Positions 9,232 to 24,653 of a stretch of DNA of 26,080 bases are shown piece after piece (the first letter of the stretch is position 1; each line of letters begins with the position of its first letter). Location: positions 1 to 26,080 of IMG/VR virus record IMGVR_UViG_3300005764_000075; one strand, 5' to 3'. The notes beneath the pieces were generated by a model. That model worked only from the letters and a program-made list of their open reading frames with translations, was not told the DNA's origin and searched no databases. The position numbers and the translations under genes are program-made. This DNA comes from a virus. Its lineage: Duplodnaviria > Caudoviricetes.

Positions 9232-9533
9232 CGGTACTTGATTTGCAGCGCCGCCCACTCCCAATCGCTGCCGCTCATTTGTCGGATAGTCGATGGTGGC
9301 ACCGCCGCCAATAACGACATCATCTGCGTCATCGCCTTGGTATCATAACGCTCGGCTGGCGGATCGGTGGTGAAGTCGATGATGACAGGACTTCCGGCGC
9401 GCTCGATATCAGCACCGGTCGGCTCACGAAAGACCAGCTTCGTCGTTTCTTCGCCGTTGGCGATGACGGCTTTCTGCAGTGTCACTTCCAGCGAGTTTGC
9501 GCCATTAAGCGGCTTTTTTTCATCCTCGGCCAT
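9204..9533 (-). CDS. Tail assembly chaperone (Mu gp41-like)
   Basis: LVFREPTGADI...VPPSTIRQMSGSDW motif; lies between tube and tape measure. Confidence 0.85.
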   Translation of the reverse strand: MAEDEKKPLNGANSLEVTLQKAVIANGEETTKLVFREPTGADIERAGSPVIIDFTTDPPAERYDTKAMTQMMSLLAAVPPSTIRQMSGSDWEWAALQIKYRFFLPGRQM

Positions 9534-9534
9534 T

Positions 9535-10152
9535 TTACGATCCTATTTCGTCACACGTGATCCCTTCGAATCGGATGCGAGTCTGGCCCTCGCGAGTGTT
9601 GAGTTCAAGTGCCGAGCGGCACCATGCCTCGCGCAAGACGTAGGTCTTGCCATTGGCCAGTTCCGCCGTCACCGTCGCTTGCGTCACAGCTTCCACGTCG
9701 TCCATCGACAGCAACGGGTCGAGCGACACGTCGCCTTCGATGTACGGCACGCGCGGCAGTTCGCTGTAACCATGGATGTAGTCCTGTCCCGCGATGCCAG
9801 CGCGTTCCAGCGCCGATGGCGAGACGGTGAAGTTGCCCCTCAAAGGGTAGAGGCTGCCGTCGACTTTTAGGAAGGCGATCCAATTTCTTCGCAACGACTC
9901 GCTAAGTCGTTACCGCCTTTCGGCTGCTACATATTCCTATGCAGTGGAGACTATGTCATCACCCTCGGAAGAGGGGCCGGGCGCTTCGGGCCGCTTGGCC
10001 CTACGATCTTTCGATCTAGTCGTTGCACCTTCCGCCTTTGCGGCAGCTTGGCTCAAAGTTGTCCGATCTGGACGTTCTTTGAATTCACCCGGATTTGTTC
10101 GGTATCGATTGCTCGATAGAGGGGCCAATTAACCCGCAATTCGTTGCGCCAT
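9535..10152 (-). CDS. Tail tube protein, spliced: exon 1 10152-10132 and exon 2 9879-9535 (121 aa)
   Basis: Exon 1 MAQRIAG has an AAGGAG RBS and is followed by an in-frame TAA. Joining it to exon 2 gives MAQRIAGIAFLKVDGSLYPLRGNFTVSPS..., a coherent Mu-like tube protein. Confidence 0.88.
9880..10131 (-). ncRNA. Group I self-splicing intron, probably subgroup IA2, no internal ORF
   Basis: The 5' exon ends in U with P1 GGGU/GCCC, and the intron ends in G. Core elements: P AAUUCAAAGAA, Q CAACUUUGAGCCAAG, R GCAACGACUA (10026-10017), S GACAUAGUC (9957-9949). P3 CCGGGU/GCCCGG. Two hairpins lie between P7 and P3' (GAUC-GAAA-GAUC, GGGCC-AAGC-GGCCC). P8 CCCUC/GAGGG. Confidence 0.93.
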
Positions 10153-10837
10153 TCTCTTTCTCCTTTGTTGGAAACCGACGGATTCTTTTCCGCCAATTCT
10201 GATTTCCAAGGCCCTTGCCAGTACGCCCGGCGCTAATATTAGCGCGCTGTTCAGGCGACAACTTTGCACCAAGCCTTGTGCGCTTCCCGCGCATCCGCAG
10301 AGAAATTGCATCACGTTGCTCTTGCGGCATGATGCGTCCTGCTGCGTTTTTATTTCCGACAGCGTACTTATTTCCGAGCATTTTTACCCGACGTTTGGCG
10401 CGCTCTTGTTCGGACTGTTTCTGGCCAGTCCGGCTTTTATTGCCCAAAGCAAGCCGACCAAATTTAGCTCGCAACTCTAGTGACCTGTTTGCGTGAGCCG
10501 CGCGCTTCCGCGCGAGCGTTTCTTCGGAATCTTTGCGACCTATTTGATTTGCGCTAATTTTTCTTCGCACTTCTGGTGAATAAGTTTTACCAGACGTGCC
10601 GCCAGAATTTGCATTCCATCCAATGCCAGCCGTTGGCCGATATCCAATCTCTTTTTCAAGACATTTATTCCGTGTGCCTACAAAAAGAATTTCTACGCCA
10701 TCAAATTTGAATCGCCCTTTTGATCGGTGTTCACTCAAACGCTGTTGAAGTTTATTTGTGATGCCAACATAGCCATCATTTTCTGGAACGCTGCAGTTGA
10801 CATCATAAAGCCAGTAGACACAGCATTGTTCAGCCAT
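10085..10837 (-). CDS. GIY-YIG homing endonuclease with NUMOD3-like repeats
   Basis: VYWLY...YVGIT...RLSEH...E...N motif set; basic repeats (GKTYSPEVRRKIS, GRKDSEETLARK, GAKLSPEQRANIS); GGAGG RBS; visibly more AT-rich than its neighbours. Confidence 0.88.
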   Translation of the reverse strand: MAEQCCVYWLYDVNCSVPENDGYVGITNKLQQRLSEHRSKGRFKFDGVEILFVGTRNKCLEKEIGYRPTAGIGWNANSGGTSGKTYSPEVRRKISANQIGRKDSEETLARKRAAHANRSLELRAKFGRLALGNKSRTGQKQSEQERAKRRVKMLGNKYAVGNKNAAGRIMPQEQRDAISLRMRGKRTRLGAKLSPEQRANISAGRTGKGLGNQNWRKRIRRFPTKEKENGATNCGLIGPSIEQSIPNKSG

Positions 10838-10865
10838 TTGAAACCTCCAGCGTTTCGAGTGGTTA

Positions 10866-10912
10866 GAATCGGCGCGATGATTTCAGGCACCGCGCCGATT
10901 CGCATTATATCA
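10866..10912 (-). promoter_or_regulatory. Candidate extended -10 promoter (TGnTATAAT) and leader hairpin for the endonuclease
   Basis: The minus strand reads TGATATAAT at 10912-10904, followed by the inverted repeat GAATCGGCGCG...CGCGCCGATTC. Confidence 0.5.
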
Positions 10913-12421
10913 GATGATCGCTGTATCACCCCTATTGTACTGCAAACGGAACTGAGCAAGCACGGCGAAGATTCGTAAAGCGTTGACCAAATCCGGCGGA
11001 TAAAGGACGTTCAATCTATTAGGGTCCTGTGAATCGCGCTCGACGATCAGGTTGTCCTTGAACGCTTGCGCATTTTCCACCAGACCGTTGAACTCGTCGA
11101 AGCGATATTGCGCGACCAGTTCAGCCTTGATTGTCTTCGGCGTAACGATAGCCTGCCCGGCCCCGAAACGCGTCCCATCATCCGCTAGTTTGTGACGCGG
11201 ATATTTCGACGTGATCGCCTGCCGCTGATTGCGTATCAGCTTGGCCAAGGTTGCCAGCGTCGTGACGTCGGTATAGGCGTCATCGCTCTGGCCGTAGAGG
11301 TTGACCGTCGCTGTCGTCGTTTCCCGGGCGATCACCGGAACGCCATCGGCATAGGTTCGCTGCGTGGCCAATCCGGCTGTCGATAGCGTGTTCAGTTCCG
11401 GCGTATTAAAGCGGGTCTGATTCGGCGCTGGCAGCAGACCCTCCAGATGCAACGATTGCAATGGACGCGCCGGATCGTTGGACAGCGCGCGAGCCGCCTT
11501 GCCGCAATAGGCCGCCGCCCACATGAAGTTGGGCGACTGCGCCGTATCCTCGACGGCGAGCACCGACAGTTGCGCCGAGTTGCGCGTCCCGCCGAATGCC
11601 AAGACCGTGGAGTAGGTGCCACGCAGGCAAGTGAAGATGTGGCCATAGAGTTGCCGCAACCAGCCCCAGCGCCCGTTATCAGAGAAACCGAATTCGGTTT
11701 CCCATGCCGTCAGCGAGTTGCTGTCGGTCTCGGCGATAGCAACGAACTCAACCGCCGTTTCACCGAGATTGGCGATGGCGTTGGTGAAGCTCGGTACGCC
11801 AGCGCCGCCAGCGGGCTGTACGATGGTCAGCGTCAAGCCGGTCGGCAAAATCTCGCCGCCGATTGCGCCGTAATAGTTGTATGTGATGTCGACATCGTTG
11901 CCGCTCACACCTTTCCATTTCACATTGACCGGACACAGGCCAGCCGCCACGGTGCCTTTGACCACCGGCAAATTCGGATTGGCCGCGATGGCATTACCGA
12001 TGTTAGTGGCAACGATGCTCACGGTGTCACCGGCTTGCACCGCAACCGGCACATGGATGCCAGCGATGTAAAGATCAATCGTGCCAGCCGCCGTCGGCGG
12101 TGACGCCACCGTGATCGAACCGGCGGCTGCGGTCGAGCCTTCCAAGACCGGCAGGCCCCACACCTCTTGGCTGAAGTTGTTGGCAAAGAATGCCGTGAAC
12201 ATCATCGCCAGTTGCGAGCCTTGGCCGAATGCCGCATCGGCCTGCGCCTGCGAGGCAATCGGCAGCGGCACGTCCTGCGCAGCGGTGCCAGCCGTCAGTT
12301 TGATGCCGACCAGCAGCGCTGGCATTCGGATGATGGATGAACCGGCTTTCGATGGGTCCACCTCGACGTAGTAGAGCGGAATTCTCCAGCCAGCCGGGAT
12401 GTTGTTGAAGCTAACGGGCAT
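10910..12421 (-). CDS. Tail sheath protein (Mu gpL-like)
   Basis: MPVSFNNIP..RIPLYYVEVD start, DPARPLQSL, KYPRHKLADDGT, RLNVLYPPDLVNALRIFA end; 503 aa. Confidence 0.95.
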   Translation of the reverse strand: MPVSFNNIPAGWRIPLYYVEVDPSKAGSSIIRMPALLVGIKLTAGTAAQDVPLPIASQAQADAAFGQGSQLAMMFTAFFANNFSQEVWGLPVLEGSTAAAGSITVASPPTAAGTIDLYIAGIHVPVAVQAGDTVSIVATNIGNAIAANPNLPVVKGTVAAGLCPVNVKWKGVSGNDVDITYNYYGAIGGEILPTGLTLTIVQPAGGAGVPSFTNAIANLGETAVEFVAIAETDSNSLTAWETEFGFSDNGRWGWLRQLYGHIFTCLRGTYSTVLAFGGTRNSAQLSVLAVEDTAQSPNFMWAAAYCGKAARALSNDPARPLQSLHLEGLLPAPNQTRFNTPELNTLSTAGLATQRTYADGVPVIARETTTATVNLYGQSDDAYTDVTTLATLAKLIRNQRQAITSKYPRHKLADDGTRFGAGQAIVTPKTIKAELVAQYRFDEFNGLVENAQAFKDNLIVERDSQDPNRLNVLYPPDLVNALRIFAVLAQFRLQYNRGDTAII

Positions 12422-20918: not shown

Positions 20919-21006
20919 CACTAAGCGCCGCCTACGGGCGGCGTCGTAGTGCTCATGCACTCGCCCGCTTGCAACGGGCGTTCACAAGCAAACGGAGTCA
21001 AAAATG
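20919..21006 (+). repeat. Structured intergenic element, copy 1
   Basis: CACTAAG-CGCCGCC-TACG-GGCGGCG-TCGTAGTGC-TCAT-GCACTC-GCCCG-CTTGCAA-CGGGC...GGAGTCAAAAATG. Confidence 0.9.
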
Positions 21007-22047
21007 CTTGCACCTACTGTCAACTTGGAAATTGAAAATCCAGTCACCTCGAAAGAGCTAGTTGACCTCTTGATCATGCACTTCGCCGTCAATCAGGCGG
21101 TGATGGTGTGGGGTGACTCAGGCATTGGCAAATCTGAACTGATGGACTTGATTTGCGCACTGACCGGGCGAAGGAAGGTTGATATTCGCCTGAACGTGCG
21201 CGAGCCGGTCGATCTGCGCGGCTTGCCCGTTCCTGATCTGGCAAAGCTAGTCACCAAATGGCTAGTCCCCAGCGAGTTGCCGCCCTCGGACGGCAGTTGG
21301 GGTCCGACGTTGCTCGTGCTCGATGAAATCAACACCGGCACGATGCAGATGATGTCGGTTGCCATGCAACTGGTAAACGAGCGGTGCATCGGTGAACACC
21401 GCTTGCCGGATAACTGCGCAGTTGTCGCCATGGGCAATCGTCCCAAGGACAGCCGTGCGGTGATCCAGATGCCCAAGCCGCTGCGCAAGCGCTTTGCTCA
21501 TTACAGCATGGTCGTCGACCATGATGCGTGGGTCGAGCACTGCAAGCGGACCGGTCTTACTCCCGAGATCATCGCCTTCATTCGCTTCCGGCCTGAGTAC
21601 CTGATCCGCGAAGCGCAGGGCGATGAAAACGCCAGCGCCAATCCCCGCACGATCTACAAGTGCGGCGTCTATGTGAAGCAACCCCCTCGGTTGCGGCACA
21701 AGGCATTCGTCGCGCTGGTCGGCAAAGACATTGGCAGCGAGATGGAAAGCTTTGTTTCGATGTATCAAGCGCTATCGAACATCGACGACATTCTTGCCCA
21801 TCCCGACACCGCCAATGTGCCGAGCGAGCGTTCTGAAGCCTACGCGGTCGCTACCGCGCTGGGCCGTTTGGCGGATCGTAAAAACTTCGCCAACGTCATC
21901 AAGTACGCCCGGCGTCTGGGCAAAGAGTACAGCCGCGAACTGGAAATCGTCGCGGTGACCGATGCCACGTATCGCGATCCGAAACTTGCCGAAGTGAAAG
22001 CCTACGGCGAGTGGGCGGTCGACAACGCGGACATCACTGCTCAATAA
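21004..22047 (+). CDS. AAA+ ATPase, MoxR/dynein-related type
   Basis: Walker A GDSGIGKS, Walker B LLVLDEIN, DLRGLP, MGNR...RF, NPR motifs. Confidence 0.9.
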   Translation: MLAPTVNLEIENPVTSKELVDLLIMHFAVNQAVMVWGDSGIGKSELMDLICALTGRRKVDIRLNVREPVDLRGLPVPDLAKLVTKWLVPSELPPSDGSWGPTLLVLDEINTGTMQMMSVAMQLVNERCIGEHRLPDNCAVVAMGNRPKDSRAVIQMPKPLRKRFAHYSMVVDHDAWVEHCKRTGLTPEIIAFIRFRPEYLIREAQGDENASANPRTIYKCGVYVKQPPRLRHKAFVALVGKDIGSEMESFVSMYQALSNIDDILAHPDTANVPSERSEAYAVATALGRLADRKNFANVIKYARRLGKEYSRELEIVAVTDATYRDPKLAEVKAYGEWAVDNADITAQ

Positions 22048-22053
22048 ACGCTT

Positions 22054-22141
22054 CACTAAGGACGGCGGTAAGTCCCGCCGTCTCGTAGTGCAGCATGCAC
22101 TCTGGCGCTTGCAACGCCAGCAATTCAAGGAGTCGAAAATG
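22054..22141 (+). repeat. Structured intergenic element, copy 2
   Basis: CACTAAG-GACGGCGG-TAAGTC-CCGCCGTC-TCGTAGTGCA-GCA-TGCACTC-TGGCG-CTTGCAA-CGCCA...GGAGTCGAAAATG. Confidence 0.9.
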
Positions 22142-23668
22142 TTACAGAACAGAATCGACACGGAACGACAAGCGGCCGACGCCATCGCTAAGGCGCGCGC
22201 GGCTCTCGTTCTCACTCGGAAGTTCTACGCGGTGCTGGTTGGCCAAGTTGTTGCCAAGCCGTGCTGGAGCATTCCGACAATGGCAACGGACTCGGTGACG
22301 CACTACTACAATCCCGCGTTCATTGTCAGCCTGCCCCCGGTCGAAGTGCTGGGGACGCAGGCGCACGAAAGCGAGCATGACGCGCGCCATCATTCGACGC
22401 GGCGTCAAGGTCGCGACCCCAAAGACTGGAATCGAGCCTGCGATTACGCAATCAACGGCGACCTGATGGCCGAGGGGTTCGTGCTGCCGAAGGGTGCGCT
22501 CTATCGTGAGGACTTCGTCGGGCTTTCCGCCGAGGAAATCTACCGCATCCTTCAGCTAGAGAAACAAAAACAGACACCTCCGCCGCCGCAGGGTGGCGAA
22601 GGCGAGAAATGCGAAGACGGCGACGACAGCGATAAGCCGTCCGACGATAAATCCGAGGAATCTGAAAATGATTCCGACGATGAAAAGTCGGACGACGAAT
22701 CCGATGGCGGCGACGGATCGGACGATGACGAATCTGAGGATGAAGAGTCCGAGGACAAGGAATCGGACGATGGCGACGGCGAAGGTGAAACCGAAGCCGA
22801 AGGCGACGACGAAGCCGGTGACGAAGCCGGTGACGAGGAAGCCGACGGCGATGGCGATGGCGACGACACTGGCGAAGACACCGATGTCGAGGCCGACGCC
22901 GAAGACGAAGATGAGAACGGTGACGGTGATAAAGGCGACGAGCCGACATCATGCGGCGAAGATGGCGGATGCGGCGAAGTGCTCGACGCGCCCGGCGACG
23001 AAGCCGAAGTTGCCGATCTCGATGCCAAATGGGAAGTCGTTACGCGGCAAGCGGTCGCGTTGGCCAAGAAGGCGGGCACGTTGCCCGGTCATTGGGCAAC
23101 CGAGATCGAGCGCCGCAAGACGCCGACCCAAGACTGGCGCGCCATCCTGCGTGAATACATCGATGCAGGCGCACGCCGGATCGAAACGTGGAACCGACCC
23201 AATCGGCGGTTCGCGCATTCCGGGTTTATCCTTCCCGGCAATCAACGCGACGGCATCAACAAGGTCGTGTTCATTATCGACGCTTCCGGCAGCATGGTTG
23301 GCCAGCACGTCAAGGTGGCCAACGAGTTGCAGGCCGCGCTCGACGATGGCGCGATCAGCGAAGTGGTCTTGGTCTACATCGACACCGAAGTCTATCGCGT
23401 TGATAGGTTCGCCGATGGCGACAAGATCGAATTCGGCGAGATCAAGGGCGGCGGGACGGCGATGTTGCCTGCTTTCCGCTGGGCCGCCGAGAACGAGTCG
23501 GATGCAAACCTGATCGTTTGCCTGACCGACTTGTATATCGAAACCATCACGCCAGCCGATGAACCGGCCTGCCCGGCGCTTTGGTGCGCGTATGGCGATC
23601 CACGCGCAATCAAGTCCGAAGGCGCGAAATTGCCTTGGGGCAAAGTTGTCGACGTGGACAACGAGTGA
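22139..23668 (+). CDS. Putative metallopeptidase plus vWA-like domain protein (DUF2201 family)
   Basis: TMATD...YYNP.F, HESEH (HExxH), WNRACDYAIN, acidic linker, then DASGSM (MIDAS DxSxS), GGGT and LTD. Start 22139 after GGAG. Confidence 0.88.
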   Translation: MLQNRIDTERQAADAIAKARAALVLTRKFYAVLVGQVVAKPCWSIPTMATDSVTHYYNPAFIVSLPPVEVLGTQAHESEHDARHHSTRRQGRDPKDWNRACDYAINGDLMAEGFVLPKGALYREDFVGLSAEEIYRILQLEKQKQTPPPPQGGEGEKCEDGDDSDKPSDDKSEESENDSDDEKSDDESDGGDGSDDDESEDEESEDKESDDGDGEGETEAEGDDEAGDEAGDEEADGDGDGDDTGEDTDVEADAEDEDENGDGDKGDEPTSCGEDGGCGEVLDAPGDEAEVADLDAKWEVVTRQAVALAKKAGTLPGHWATEIERRKTPTQDWRAILREYIDAGARRIETWNRPNRRFAHSGFILPGNQRDGINKVVFIIDASGSMVGQHVKVANELQAALDDGAISEVVLVYIDTEVYRVDRFADGDKIEFGEIKGGGTAMLPAFRWAAENESDANLIVCLTDLYIETITPADEPACPALWCAYGDPRAIKSEGAKLPWGKVVDVDNE

Positions 23669-23669
23669 G

Positions 23670-23762
23670 CACTAAGGGCGGCCCCGTGCGGGCCGCCTCA
23701 TAGTGGTCATATCGATCACTCCCGCGCTTGCAGCGGGTTCACATGCATAGGAGTCAAAAATG
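23670..23762 (+). repeat. Structured intergenic element, copy 3
   Basis: CACTAAG-GGCGGCCC-CGTGC-GGGCCGCC-TCATAGTGGTC-ATATC-GATCACT-CCCGC-GCTTGCA-GCGGG...GGAGTCAAAAATG. Confidence 0.9.
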
Positions 23763-24653
23763 AACAAGCATGTTTCTGTTCCGTCCGTCCTGCAACGCAA
23801 GGCGGTGCTGGTCTCGCTCAACATCTCGACGTGGGCGGCGCGCAAGCTTGACCGCAAGGTCACGCGCGAAACCAACCAGCGCTATCATGCGGCGGCGGAC
23901 GCAGGCCGCTTCAACAAGCTTCTGATCGAAGCGGCACGCCTGAAGGAGATCAACGGATGCGTGTCTCGCGCCCGCGATCTCTACTACTCGATGACCAAGC
24001 CTTGGGCGGATGAAGGTCAGCGCATTCTGCCGAACGCGCTGTATCTTGATTTCGTCAATCAACTGCGCGTCATCAAGCAGGACTTTGAGAAAGCGGCCGA
24101 GGATTTCTGCCGCGAGTATCCGTCCTTTGTCGCCGAGCGCAAGTCAGTGCTCAACGGCATGTTCAACGAAGCGGACTATCCGACCCCCGGCATGATCCGA
24201 GGCAAGTTCAAGCTTGAACATCGCTTCTCCAATCTGCCTGCGGCCGGTGACTTCCGCAGCGATGATCTGGACGCGGAAACCGTCGAGGACATCCGCGCCG
24301 AGATCGAGAAGACGACGACGGCCGTCGAGCACGAGGCCATGGCCCACACCAAAACACAGATCGTCGAGGTGGTCGGCCATATGGCCAAGAAGCTGGGCGA
24401 GTACAAGAGCGAAGGCGGCGACGAGCGGCGTTTCTTCTTCGACTCGCTGGTCGACAACATCCGCGATCTGGTCAAGTTGCTGCCTGCCTTCAACCTGACC
24501 GGCGACACGAAGCTCGATGCGCTGATCAAGCGGATCGACAAGGAATTGTGCAGCGAAGATGCGAAGGTGCTGCGCAAGAACGACGACTTGCGCGAAGGCG
24601 TGCGCAAGAGTGCCGAGGACATCCTTGCCGAAGTCGAGCGCGTGATGGCCTAA
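23760..24653 (+). CDS. Conserved phage hypothetical protein, DUF3150-like
   Basis: AVLVSLNISTWAARKLD, TKPW...G.RILP, F...Y, DYP...IRGKF, FNLTGD; this kind of protein is often found beside AAA/vWA pairs. Confidence 0.65.
   Translation: MNKHVSVPSVLQRKAVLVSLNISTWAARKLDRKVTRETNQRYHAAADAGRFNKLLIEAARLKEINGCVSRARDLYYSMTKPWADEGQRILPNALYLDFVNQLRVIKQDFEKAAEDFCREYPSFVAERKSVLNGMFNEADYPTPGMIRGKFKLEHRFSNLPAAGDFRSDDLDAETVEDIRAEIEKTTTAVEHEAMAHTKTQIVEVVGHMAKKLGEYKSEGGDERRFFFDSLVDNIRDLVKLLPAFNLTGDTKLDALIKRIDKELCSEDAKVLRKNDDLREGVRKSAEDILAEVERVMA

Follow-up and report, generated by a model that had tools for sequence, protein, structure and literature searches.

A free-standing GIY-YIG endonuclease gene and the predicted group I intron in the neighbouring tail tube gene have probably spread as one package. 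The run-on of the nuclease frame into this intron is probably incidental, and the product would be a 218-residue enzyme with dispensable tails. This reading is based on the layout of the locus, the intact catalytic residues of the nuclease, the conserved intron core, the co-occurrence of the two elements and their scatter on the tube tree. The DNA analyzed (the window) is a whole contig of 26,080 nt, which by gene content belongs to a tailed phage or prophage. Pfam and PHROG profiles gave the gene order protease-capsid, portal and adaptors, followed by a Mu-like contractile tail module on the minus strand; no match to a terminase was obtained among the 31 ORFs scanned. The region between tail sheath and tail tube contains the following features:

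10910..12421, minus strand: tail sheath gene, 503 aa (PF17482; phrog_165, E=8e-161), upstream flank of the nuclease slot
10866..10901, minus strand: 14-bp hairpin between the sheath stop and the nuclease start, without a U-run (fold of 10925-10820)
10085..10837, minus strand: free-standing GIY-YIG endonuclease gene, 250 aa, between sheath and tube, with the RBS GGAGG at 10848-10844
10085..10183, minus strand: non-conserved nuclease tail, aa 219-250; it covers the tube RBS and exon 1 and extends 47 nt into the intron
10160..10165, minus strand: tail tube RBS AAGGAG with a 7-nt spacer, read as Lys-Glu in the nuclease frame
10132..10152, minus strand: tail tube exon 1, 21 nt (7 codons), ATG at 10152, placed by comparison with relatives
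9880..10131, minus strand: predicted group I intron without ORF, 252 nt, two extra stems after P7 (Rfam RF00028)
9535..9879, minus strand: tail tube exon 2, 114 codons and stop (PF10618, E=6.5e-31)
9605..9879, minus strand: shadow frame in exon 2, into which splicing would lead the nuclease frame; 91 residues rich in Arg and Gly, ending at 9605

The intron scored 75.8 bits with RF00028 (against 50; E=7.9e-18) and, judged by the two extra stems after P7, we take it to be of subgroup IA2. Splice sites are predicted between 10132 and 10131 and between 9880 and 9879. Joining the exons at these sites would generate the tube start found uninterrupted in 78 of 80 relatives and a Mu-like tube of 121 aa. 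The tube frame is opened by 19 splice combinations, and the others were dropped because only the joining of 10132 to 9879 reproduced the junction of the relatives. P1 consists of 4 bp closed by a U.G pair and P9.0 of 2 bp beside the terminal G. All 11 introns of the clade form P9.0, using three different base-pair sets, and also have the U.G pair of P1. The first intron codon is a stop in the tube frame, and a stop in the host frame lies within 0-3 codons of the intron start in all 11 introns. Note that splicing, and with it both protein forms of the nuclease, are predictions from sequence. A generic intron-core pattern proved too broad; the clade pattern covered 20 of 64 parts of the data, and intron counts are thus lower bounds. 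For annotation, the arrangement carries a warning, as the real tube start lies inside the nuclease gene and the ORF called for exon 2 has a false start. Tubes of cultured phages were all distant (<60% identity, 35 records), with partial matches to the intron core. No sigma-70 promoter-like site and no minus-strand terminator was predicted in 9400-11200, and terminator prediction did not call the hairpin at 10866..10901. The gene orf142 of phage Twort reportedly contains three introns with exon skipping. According to the available part of the report on Twort, orf142 encodes a tail tube protein and its introns are of group I, as in the window; it differs in tube family and host, and an adjacent nuclease is not mentioned there (PMC11878797).

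The nuclease matched the Pfam GIY-YIG profile weakly (PF01541, E=4.6e-5, 24.1 bits at a cut-off of 22.6) and also PHROG 314, homing endonuclease (E=4.7e-8). Its catalytic domain comprises approximately aa 5-80 and is followed by basic NUMOD-like repeats; a NUMOD3 assignment is precomputed for many relatives and absent for the window protein. The residues Y8, G22, Y23, G25, R33, H37, E63 and N75, which presumably correspond to the catalytic residues of I-TevI, were invariant in 15 and 13 aligned relatives, one N-terminally short row excepted. T5orf172 proteins belong to the same GIY-YIG superfamily. Conservation stops at aa 218, the end of the final conserved motif NQNWRKR (aa 212-218; 10204-10184). 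This motif is also C-terminal in sheath-slot nucleases without an intron, and hence not specific to the tube site. A structure model had a mean pLDDT of 61, falling below 50 from aa 205. The top Foldseek rows were GIY-YIG proteins (UvrC and Slx1, with the I-TevI domain lower), none reaching E 0.001, and no sequence match was found in the PDB. As a single query against viral contigs the nuclease retrieved no relatives; an alignment query retrieved 19 and 7 loci, one being the window itself and several repeating earlier contigs. A 10-bp hairpin lies just upstream of the tube RBS within the nuclease frame (window 10198-10173, minus strand), and loci L069 and L074 have a shorter CGG/CCG stem at this position despite different encoded residues.

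The initial annotation had placed the nuclease outside the intron, as a 250-aa frame containing the tube RBS and exon 1 and stopping in the intron at 10085, and these coordinates hold. It had also proposed that the spliced RNA would join the open frame ending at 9605 to give ~326 aa, a product that we reproduced from the sequence. Exon 1 is read in another frame, and the nuclease frame continues for 47 nt into the intron, across P1, P2 and the 5' strand of P3. The unspliced (250 aa) and predicted spliced (326 aa) forms have their first 235 residues in common. A separately assembled contig, possibly of the source sample, agreed with the window without a gap over the part it covered (9977-11062), with one differing letter at 10739; the read-through is therefore not an assembly indel. 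The shadow tail had no family match in Pfam or PHROG profiles, and its single-sequence fold without alignment reached a pLDDT of 55 and a pTM of 0.18. Across 76 distinct tube alleles, window included, the shadow frame was open for at least 90 codons in 16 (median 37), almost all of them without any nuclease. Thus, a length of 326 aa is ordinary for these GC-rich genes.

Comparison with relatives argues that the run-on is real but likely an accident, as half of the intron-bearing relatives lack it. The overlap tail was common only to the window and L074 among 120 related proteins, and none of these was a second protein with the shadow tail. In L074 the nuclease frame ends at the same intron stop, but its predicted gain on splicing is 6 residues, compared with 91 in the window. 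The nuclease of L069 stops directly before the tube ATG, without overlap, and L229 contains a remnant in which the two ends of the gene, its first and its last codons, are joined; this frame, too, terminates ahead of the ATG. The alleles with an intron after codon 7 are thus divided into two that read through and two that stop before the tube start. Measured from the tube start, nuclease stops at seven loci were at -19, -14, -9, -1, 0, +65 and +68. The stops of sense GIY-YIG genes cluster at the RBS of the next gene, with 5 of 7 in the tube slot and 6 of 10 in the sheath slot at or before the start codon. The remaining 4 of 10 in the sheath slot extend past the sheath start, and three of these end at +17, again in the -1 frame, where there is no intron. 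An EndoVII-type gene in L327 also overruns the tube start and stops in exon 1. Since the -1 frame of exon 1 is almost free of stops (a stop in 4 of 106 intron-less alleles), the frame enters the intron once the nuclease stop is lost. Read-through in the tube slot occurred in 2 of 4 intron alleles, with the same frame and the same stop, versus none of the four intron-less loci plus L225. In so small a sample, a tolerance or mild benefit of read-through tied to the intron is still conceivable.

We next consider how the two elements are distributed. Among 110 distinct tube loci, four distinct alleles were interrupted by an intron after codon 7 (the window, L069, L074 and L229). All four carried a sense GIY-YIG gene or, in L229, its internally deleted remnant. 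The tube-centred sample consisted of the best 80 of 189 and the best 80 of 99 matches, together 96 distinct loci, 95 of which were counted, one being left out for lack of upstream DNA. Both elements were present in 3 of these loci, the intron alone in 0, the nuclease alone in 1 and neither in 91 (Fisher p=2.9e-5); the GIY-YIG gene was patchy (4 of 95) and scattered on the tube tree. Including the nuclease-centred scans, which contributed L205/L223 and L224, the nuclease was found without an intron in three lineages (the third being L055). Tube starts in these lineages are near consensus, and the nuclease that they carry is 50-58% identical. The pairing proposed in the initial annotation is supported: the survey of relatives found the intron always with the nuclease or its remnant, and scattered on the tube tree, whereas the nuclease also occurred free of the intron. 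The intron may therefore not be the sole possible shield of the donor, or the target may lie elsewhere. An allele with neither element was present in the same sequencing run.

In a tree of exon 2 (108 rows, two short rows left out), the four intron alleles fell on four branches, requiring four changes, and a single clade was rejected (p-AU 5.7e-12). Each was sister to an allele without intron or GIY-YIG gene, and three of the four fell in one larger tube clade. Formally, many losses instead of gains would be an alternative explanation of the scatter of only four intron alleles. The codon-7 introns were 77-82% alike and their second exons 66-79%, the tubes of the window and L074 being 66% alike. 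Nuclease aa 196-218 were 78-91% identical among the three intact intron-linked proteins, 61-70% identical between these and L055, and 13-22% between these and L205 and L224. The nucleases are mosaics, the catalytic end following other partners and not the intron. By these comparisons, the part of the nuclease gene that travels with the intron appears to be its 3' end, and the pattern fits lateral movement of a cassette comprising nuclease 3' end, RBS, exon 1 and intron. No signal of co-conversion was detected in exon 2 (third-position identity of 0.50 versus 0.42 in the first five codons) or in the sheath 3' end, and for this reason the cut site was not located. The motif CNNNG, conserved in exon 1 and matching the cleavage motif of I-TevI, was considered as a guess at the target and dropped, because L205 has lost it while L055 and L224 retain it.

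The slot between sheath and tube is used more widely. HNH or EndoVII-type genes occupied it in six intron-less loci, by inspection of 11 loci with gaps >300 nt (four with gaps >2 kb left out), and antisense GIY-YIG genes were in it in three loci. Introns of the same ORF-less clade were seen at 10 or more sites, most of them no further than codon 21 of a sheath or tube gene (L327, L338, L348, L337, L438, L225, L398, L403, L084, L146, L219, L221, L396, L061 and L127). The tube sites are at about codons 7, 10, 14, 17, 41 and 51 and the sheath sites at about codons 14, 16, 19 and 21; the intron of L127 interrupts a different type of sheath-like gene. The slot contained a nuclease gene or remnant at 9 of 10 tube introns (six sites, several families) versus 7 of 92 intron-less loci, two sets that were ascertained differently. 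The codon-14 tube intron was accompanied by a GIY-YIG gene in L225, where only the intron start is visible, and by an EndoVII/HNH-type gene in L438, where only the last 29 nuclease codons are visible. Five sheath introns (L084, L146, L221, L396 and L219) had no nuclease just upstream. L229 (1-420, 1840-2260) contains two introns, at sheath codon 14 and tube codon 7, each behind an internally deleted GIY-YIG remnant. These remnants keep only their ends and show the nuclease caught in decay while the intron persists. Separately, an insertion of 250-300 nt near sheath codon 200 (L146:2755-3005, L221:4067-4323, L039:902-1197) had no Rfam match at gathering score, and in L055 (730-2023) unrelated genes lie between the sheath and the nuclease-tube pair, one encoding an iron-permease-like membrane protein (by eye).

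Spread as one package would proceed as follows. During a mixed infection or prophage encounter, the nuclease would cut the empty allele in the vicinity of the sheath-tube junction, the surroundings of the tube start being the likeliest place. Repair would then transfer the whole stretch from nuclease to intron, with RBS and exon 1, since the nuclease end and the intron are separated by only ~35 nt of tube start and the next long homology is exon 2. In this scenario, we consider it about as likely as not that the intron shields the cut site as well, and pure hitch-hiking somewhat less likely. As genes of this nuclease family terminate within or close to the RBS of the next gene, a small indel in the spacer would shift the frame to -1 of the tube. 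The shifted frame would end at whichever stop comes first, in the intron on unspliced RNA or in the shadow frame on spliced RNA. In either case the 218-residue enzyme would be the same and the tail added to it dispensable.

Nuclease and intron likely constitute a co-homing pair of a known kind, in which strict collaboration is one possibility. The strictest version, a sub-case of the one-package reading, has the recognition site spanning the codon 7/8 junction, so that the intron alone makes the donor immune and the overlap is incidental. We give this version a nearly even chance. Only this GIY-YIG clade accompanies the codon-7 intron (0 of 6 HNH/EndoVII-type slot genes do), first and second codon positions around the intron site are nearly invariant in 106 alleles, and a cut deep in exon 2 is made less likely by the lack of co-conversion there. 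However, near-consensus junctions persist beside the nuclease in the three intron-less lineages, the difference in partner of the codon-14 intron between L225 and L438 does not suit it, and linkage alone predicts the same co-occurrence.

An intron beside a free-standing nuclease is known as collaborative homing from psbA/F-CphI of phage S-PM2, from T7-like phages and from terL of ICP1 (PMC6083498, PMC2988022, PMC3984707, PMC10448857). The S-PM2 system is the precedent for the strict version: as in the window, a group I intron without ORF interrupts an essential gene next to a free-standing nuclease, but cleavage at the insertion site and protection by the intron were demonstrated there (PMC6083498), while for the window pair both are putative. 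The window differs further in having a GIY-YIG nuclease, a tail gene and a nuclease frame that overlaps exon 1 and intron. In the Vibrio phage ICP1, a T5orf172 nuclease is located beside a short N-terminal exon of a morphogenesis gene, as in the window, and nuclease turnover and domain swapping at such sites are described (PMC10448857). In contrast to the window, splicing was shown by RT-PCR, the gene and phage group are others, and frame overlap goes unmentioned in the available text of that paper (PMC10448857). No free-standing nuclease reading across a 5' splice site was found in the literature covered, which was partial.

A somewhat less than even chance attaches to the possibility that the intron merely hitch-hikes, the nuclease cutting elsewhere near the slot, either at the sheath end or at a junction broken by its own insertion. 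Whatever intron interrupts the following gene in its first codons would then be carried along, because exon 1 (21 nt) is too short for repair to resolve within it. From the homing mechanism, the ~35 nt between nuclease end and intron would make this so whichever side the cut lies on. The slot nucleases of several families beside 9 of 10 tube introns (with the different ascertainment of the intron-less set) and the nuclease without intron in three lineages are in favor. On the other hand, the sheath introns without a nuclease just upstream indicate that the clade can persist without an adjacent partner, and the sheath 3' end lacks co-conversion. The Seg and Mob nucleases of T4, including mobE homing in trans, are likewise optional genes wedged between conserved genes, with frames overlapping their neighbours by 1-24 bp (PMC2988022). 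They differ in that the overlap is with the upstream gene and the cut sites are hundreds to thousands of bases away (PMC2988022). Such distant cutting, if true in the window, would favor hitch-hiking.

It is improbable that the overlap has a function of its own, with the intron controlling two genes, splicing switching the nuclease C-termini and nuclease ribosomes gating tube production. Read-through to the same intron stop in the window and L074 (tubes 66% alike), the good RBS of the nuclease and the impairment of splicing by ribosomes on intron structure (PMC3073962) speak for it. However, the initial annotation's idea that one intron acts on two genes and rewrites a C-terminus is not supported as a functional design: the overlap is absent in L069 and the L229 remnant, and the spliced tails (91 versus 6 residues) lie beyond the last conserved motif, have a length typical of chance and are modelled at low confidence. 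Its suggestion that ribosomes crossing P1/P2 modulate splicing is possible as a side effect, but the conserved feature, the host-frame stop in 11 of 11 introns, is the opposite. According to two reviews, group I introns are protected from ribosome entry by in-frame stops, and splicing suffers when ribosomes occupy the intron (PMC3073962, PMC3984707). For these reasons, passage of a ribosome through P1-P3 would more probably be a slight cost than a switch. The GIY-YIG frame of I-TevI in the T4 td intron is comparable in that its last codons are intron structure and ribosome entry impairs splicing (PMC3073962). It differs in being inside the intron, with the overlap encoding part of its DNA-binding domain, whereas the window gene is outside and its overlap residues are not conserved. 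A coupling device, in which nuclease ribosomes would melt P1-P3, delay splicing and throttle tube output while splicing swaps the nuclease stop and tail, is equally doubtful. If true, a selfish gene would hold an essential structural gene hostage through a ribozyme and, in a wider view, the slot between these two genes would act as a nursery, with a single intron clade colonising many sites within reach of whichever nuclease is resident there. Two isoforms would matter more if real; the comparative data count against them. Finally, the proposal of an intermediate in intron-endonuclease fusion, towards a mobile intron carrying its endonuclease, is very improbable, although the published pathway sets out from such adjacency (PMC3984707, PMC2988022): no nuclease of this family was inside an intron among the 155 loci listed with the clade's P7.2 motif.

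With spread as one package as the preferred reading, the pair extends the short list of introns flanked by a nuclease gene with one that combines GIY-YIG and tail tube. The loci form a natural series: some alleles lack both elements, some have the nuclease alone, some have both, and an intron also occurs beside a decayed nuclease; alleles with read-through exist as well as alleles lacking it. This series makes the question of true collaboration versus hitch-hiking directly testable.

Elsewhere in the window, a Mu-like DNA-circularisation/baseplate protein (phrog_184; 4881-3543, minus strand) appears as two ORFs of 183 and 260 aa, both downstream of the hub and spike genes. An ORF of 569 aa with collagen repeats is located between portal and head-tail adaptor, and its longest start overlaps the end of the portal ORF (16244-14535 and 17286-15799, minus strand). 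Directly upstream of the capsid gene and on the opposite strand (21004-24653, plus strand) are genes for a MoxR-like AAA ATPase, a DUF2201 metallopeptidase/vWA protein and a DUF3150-like ORF.
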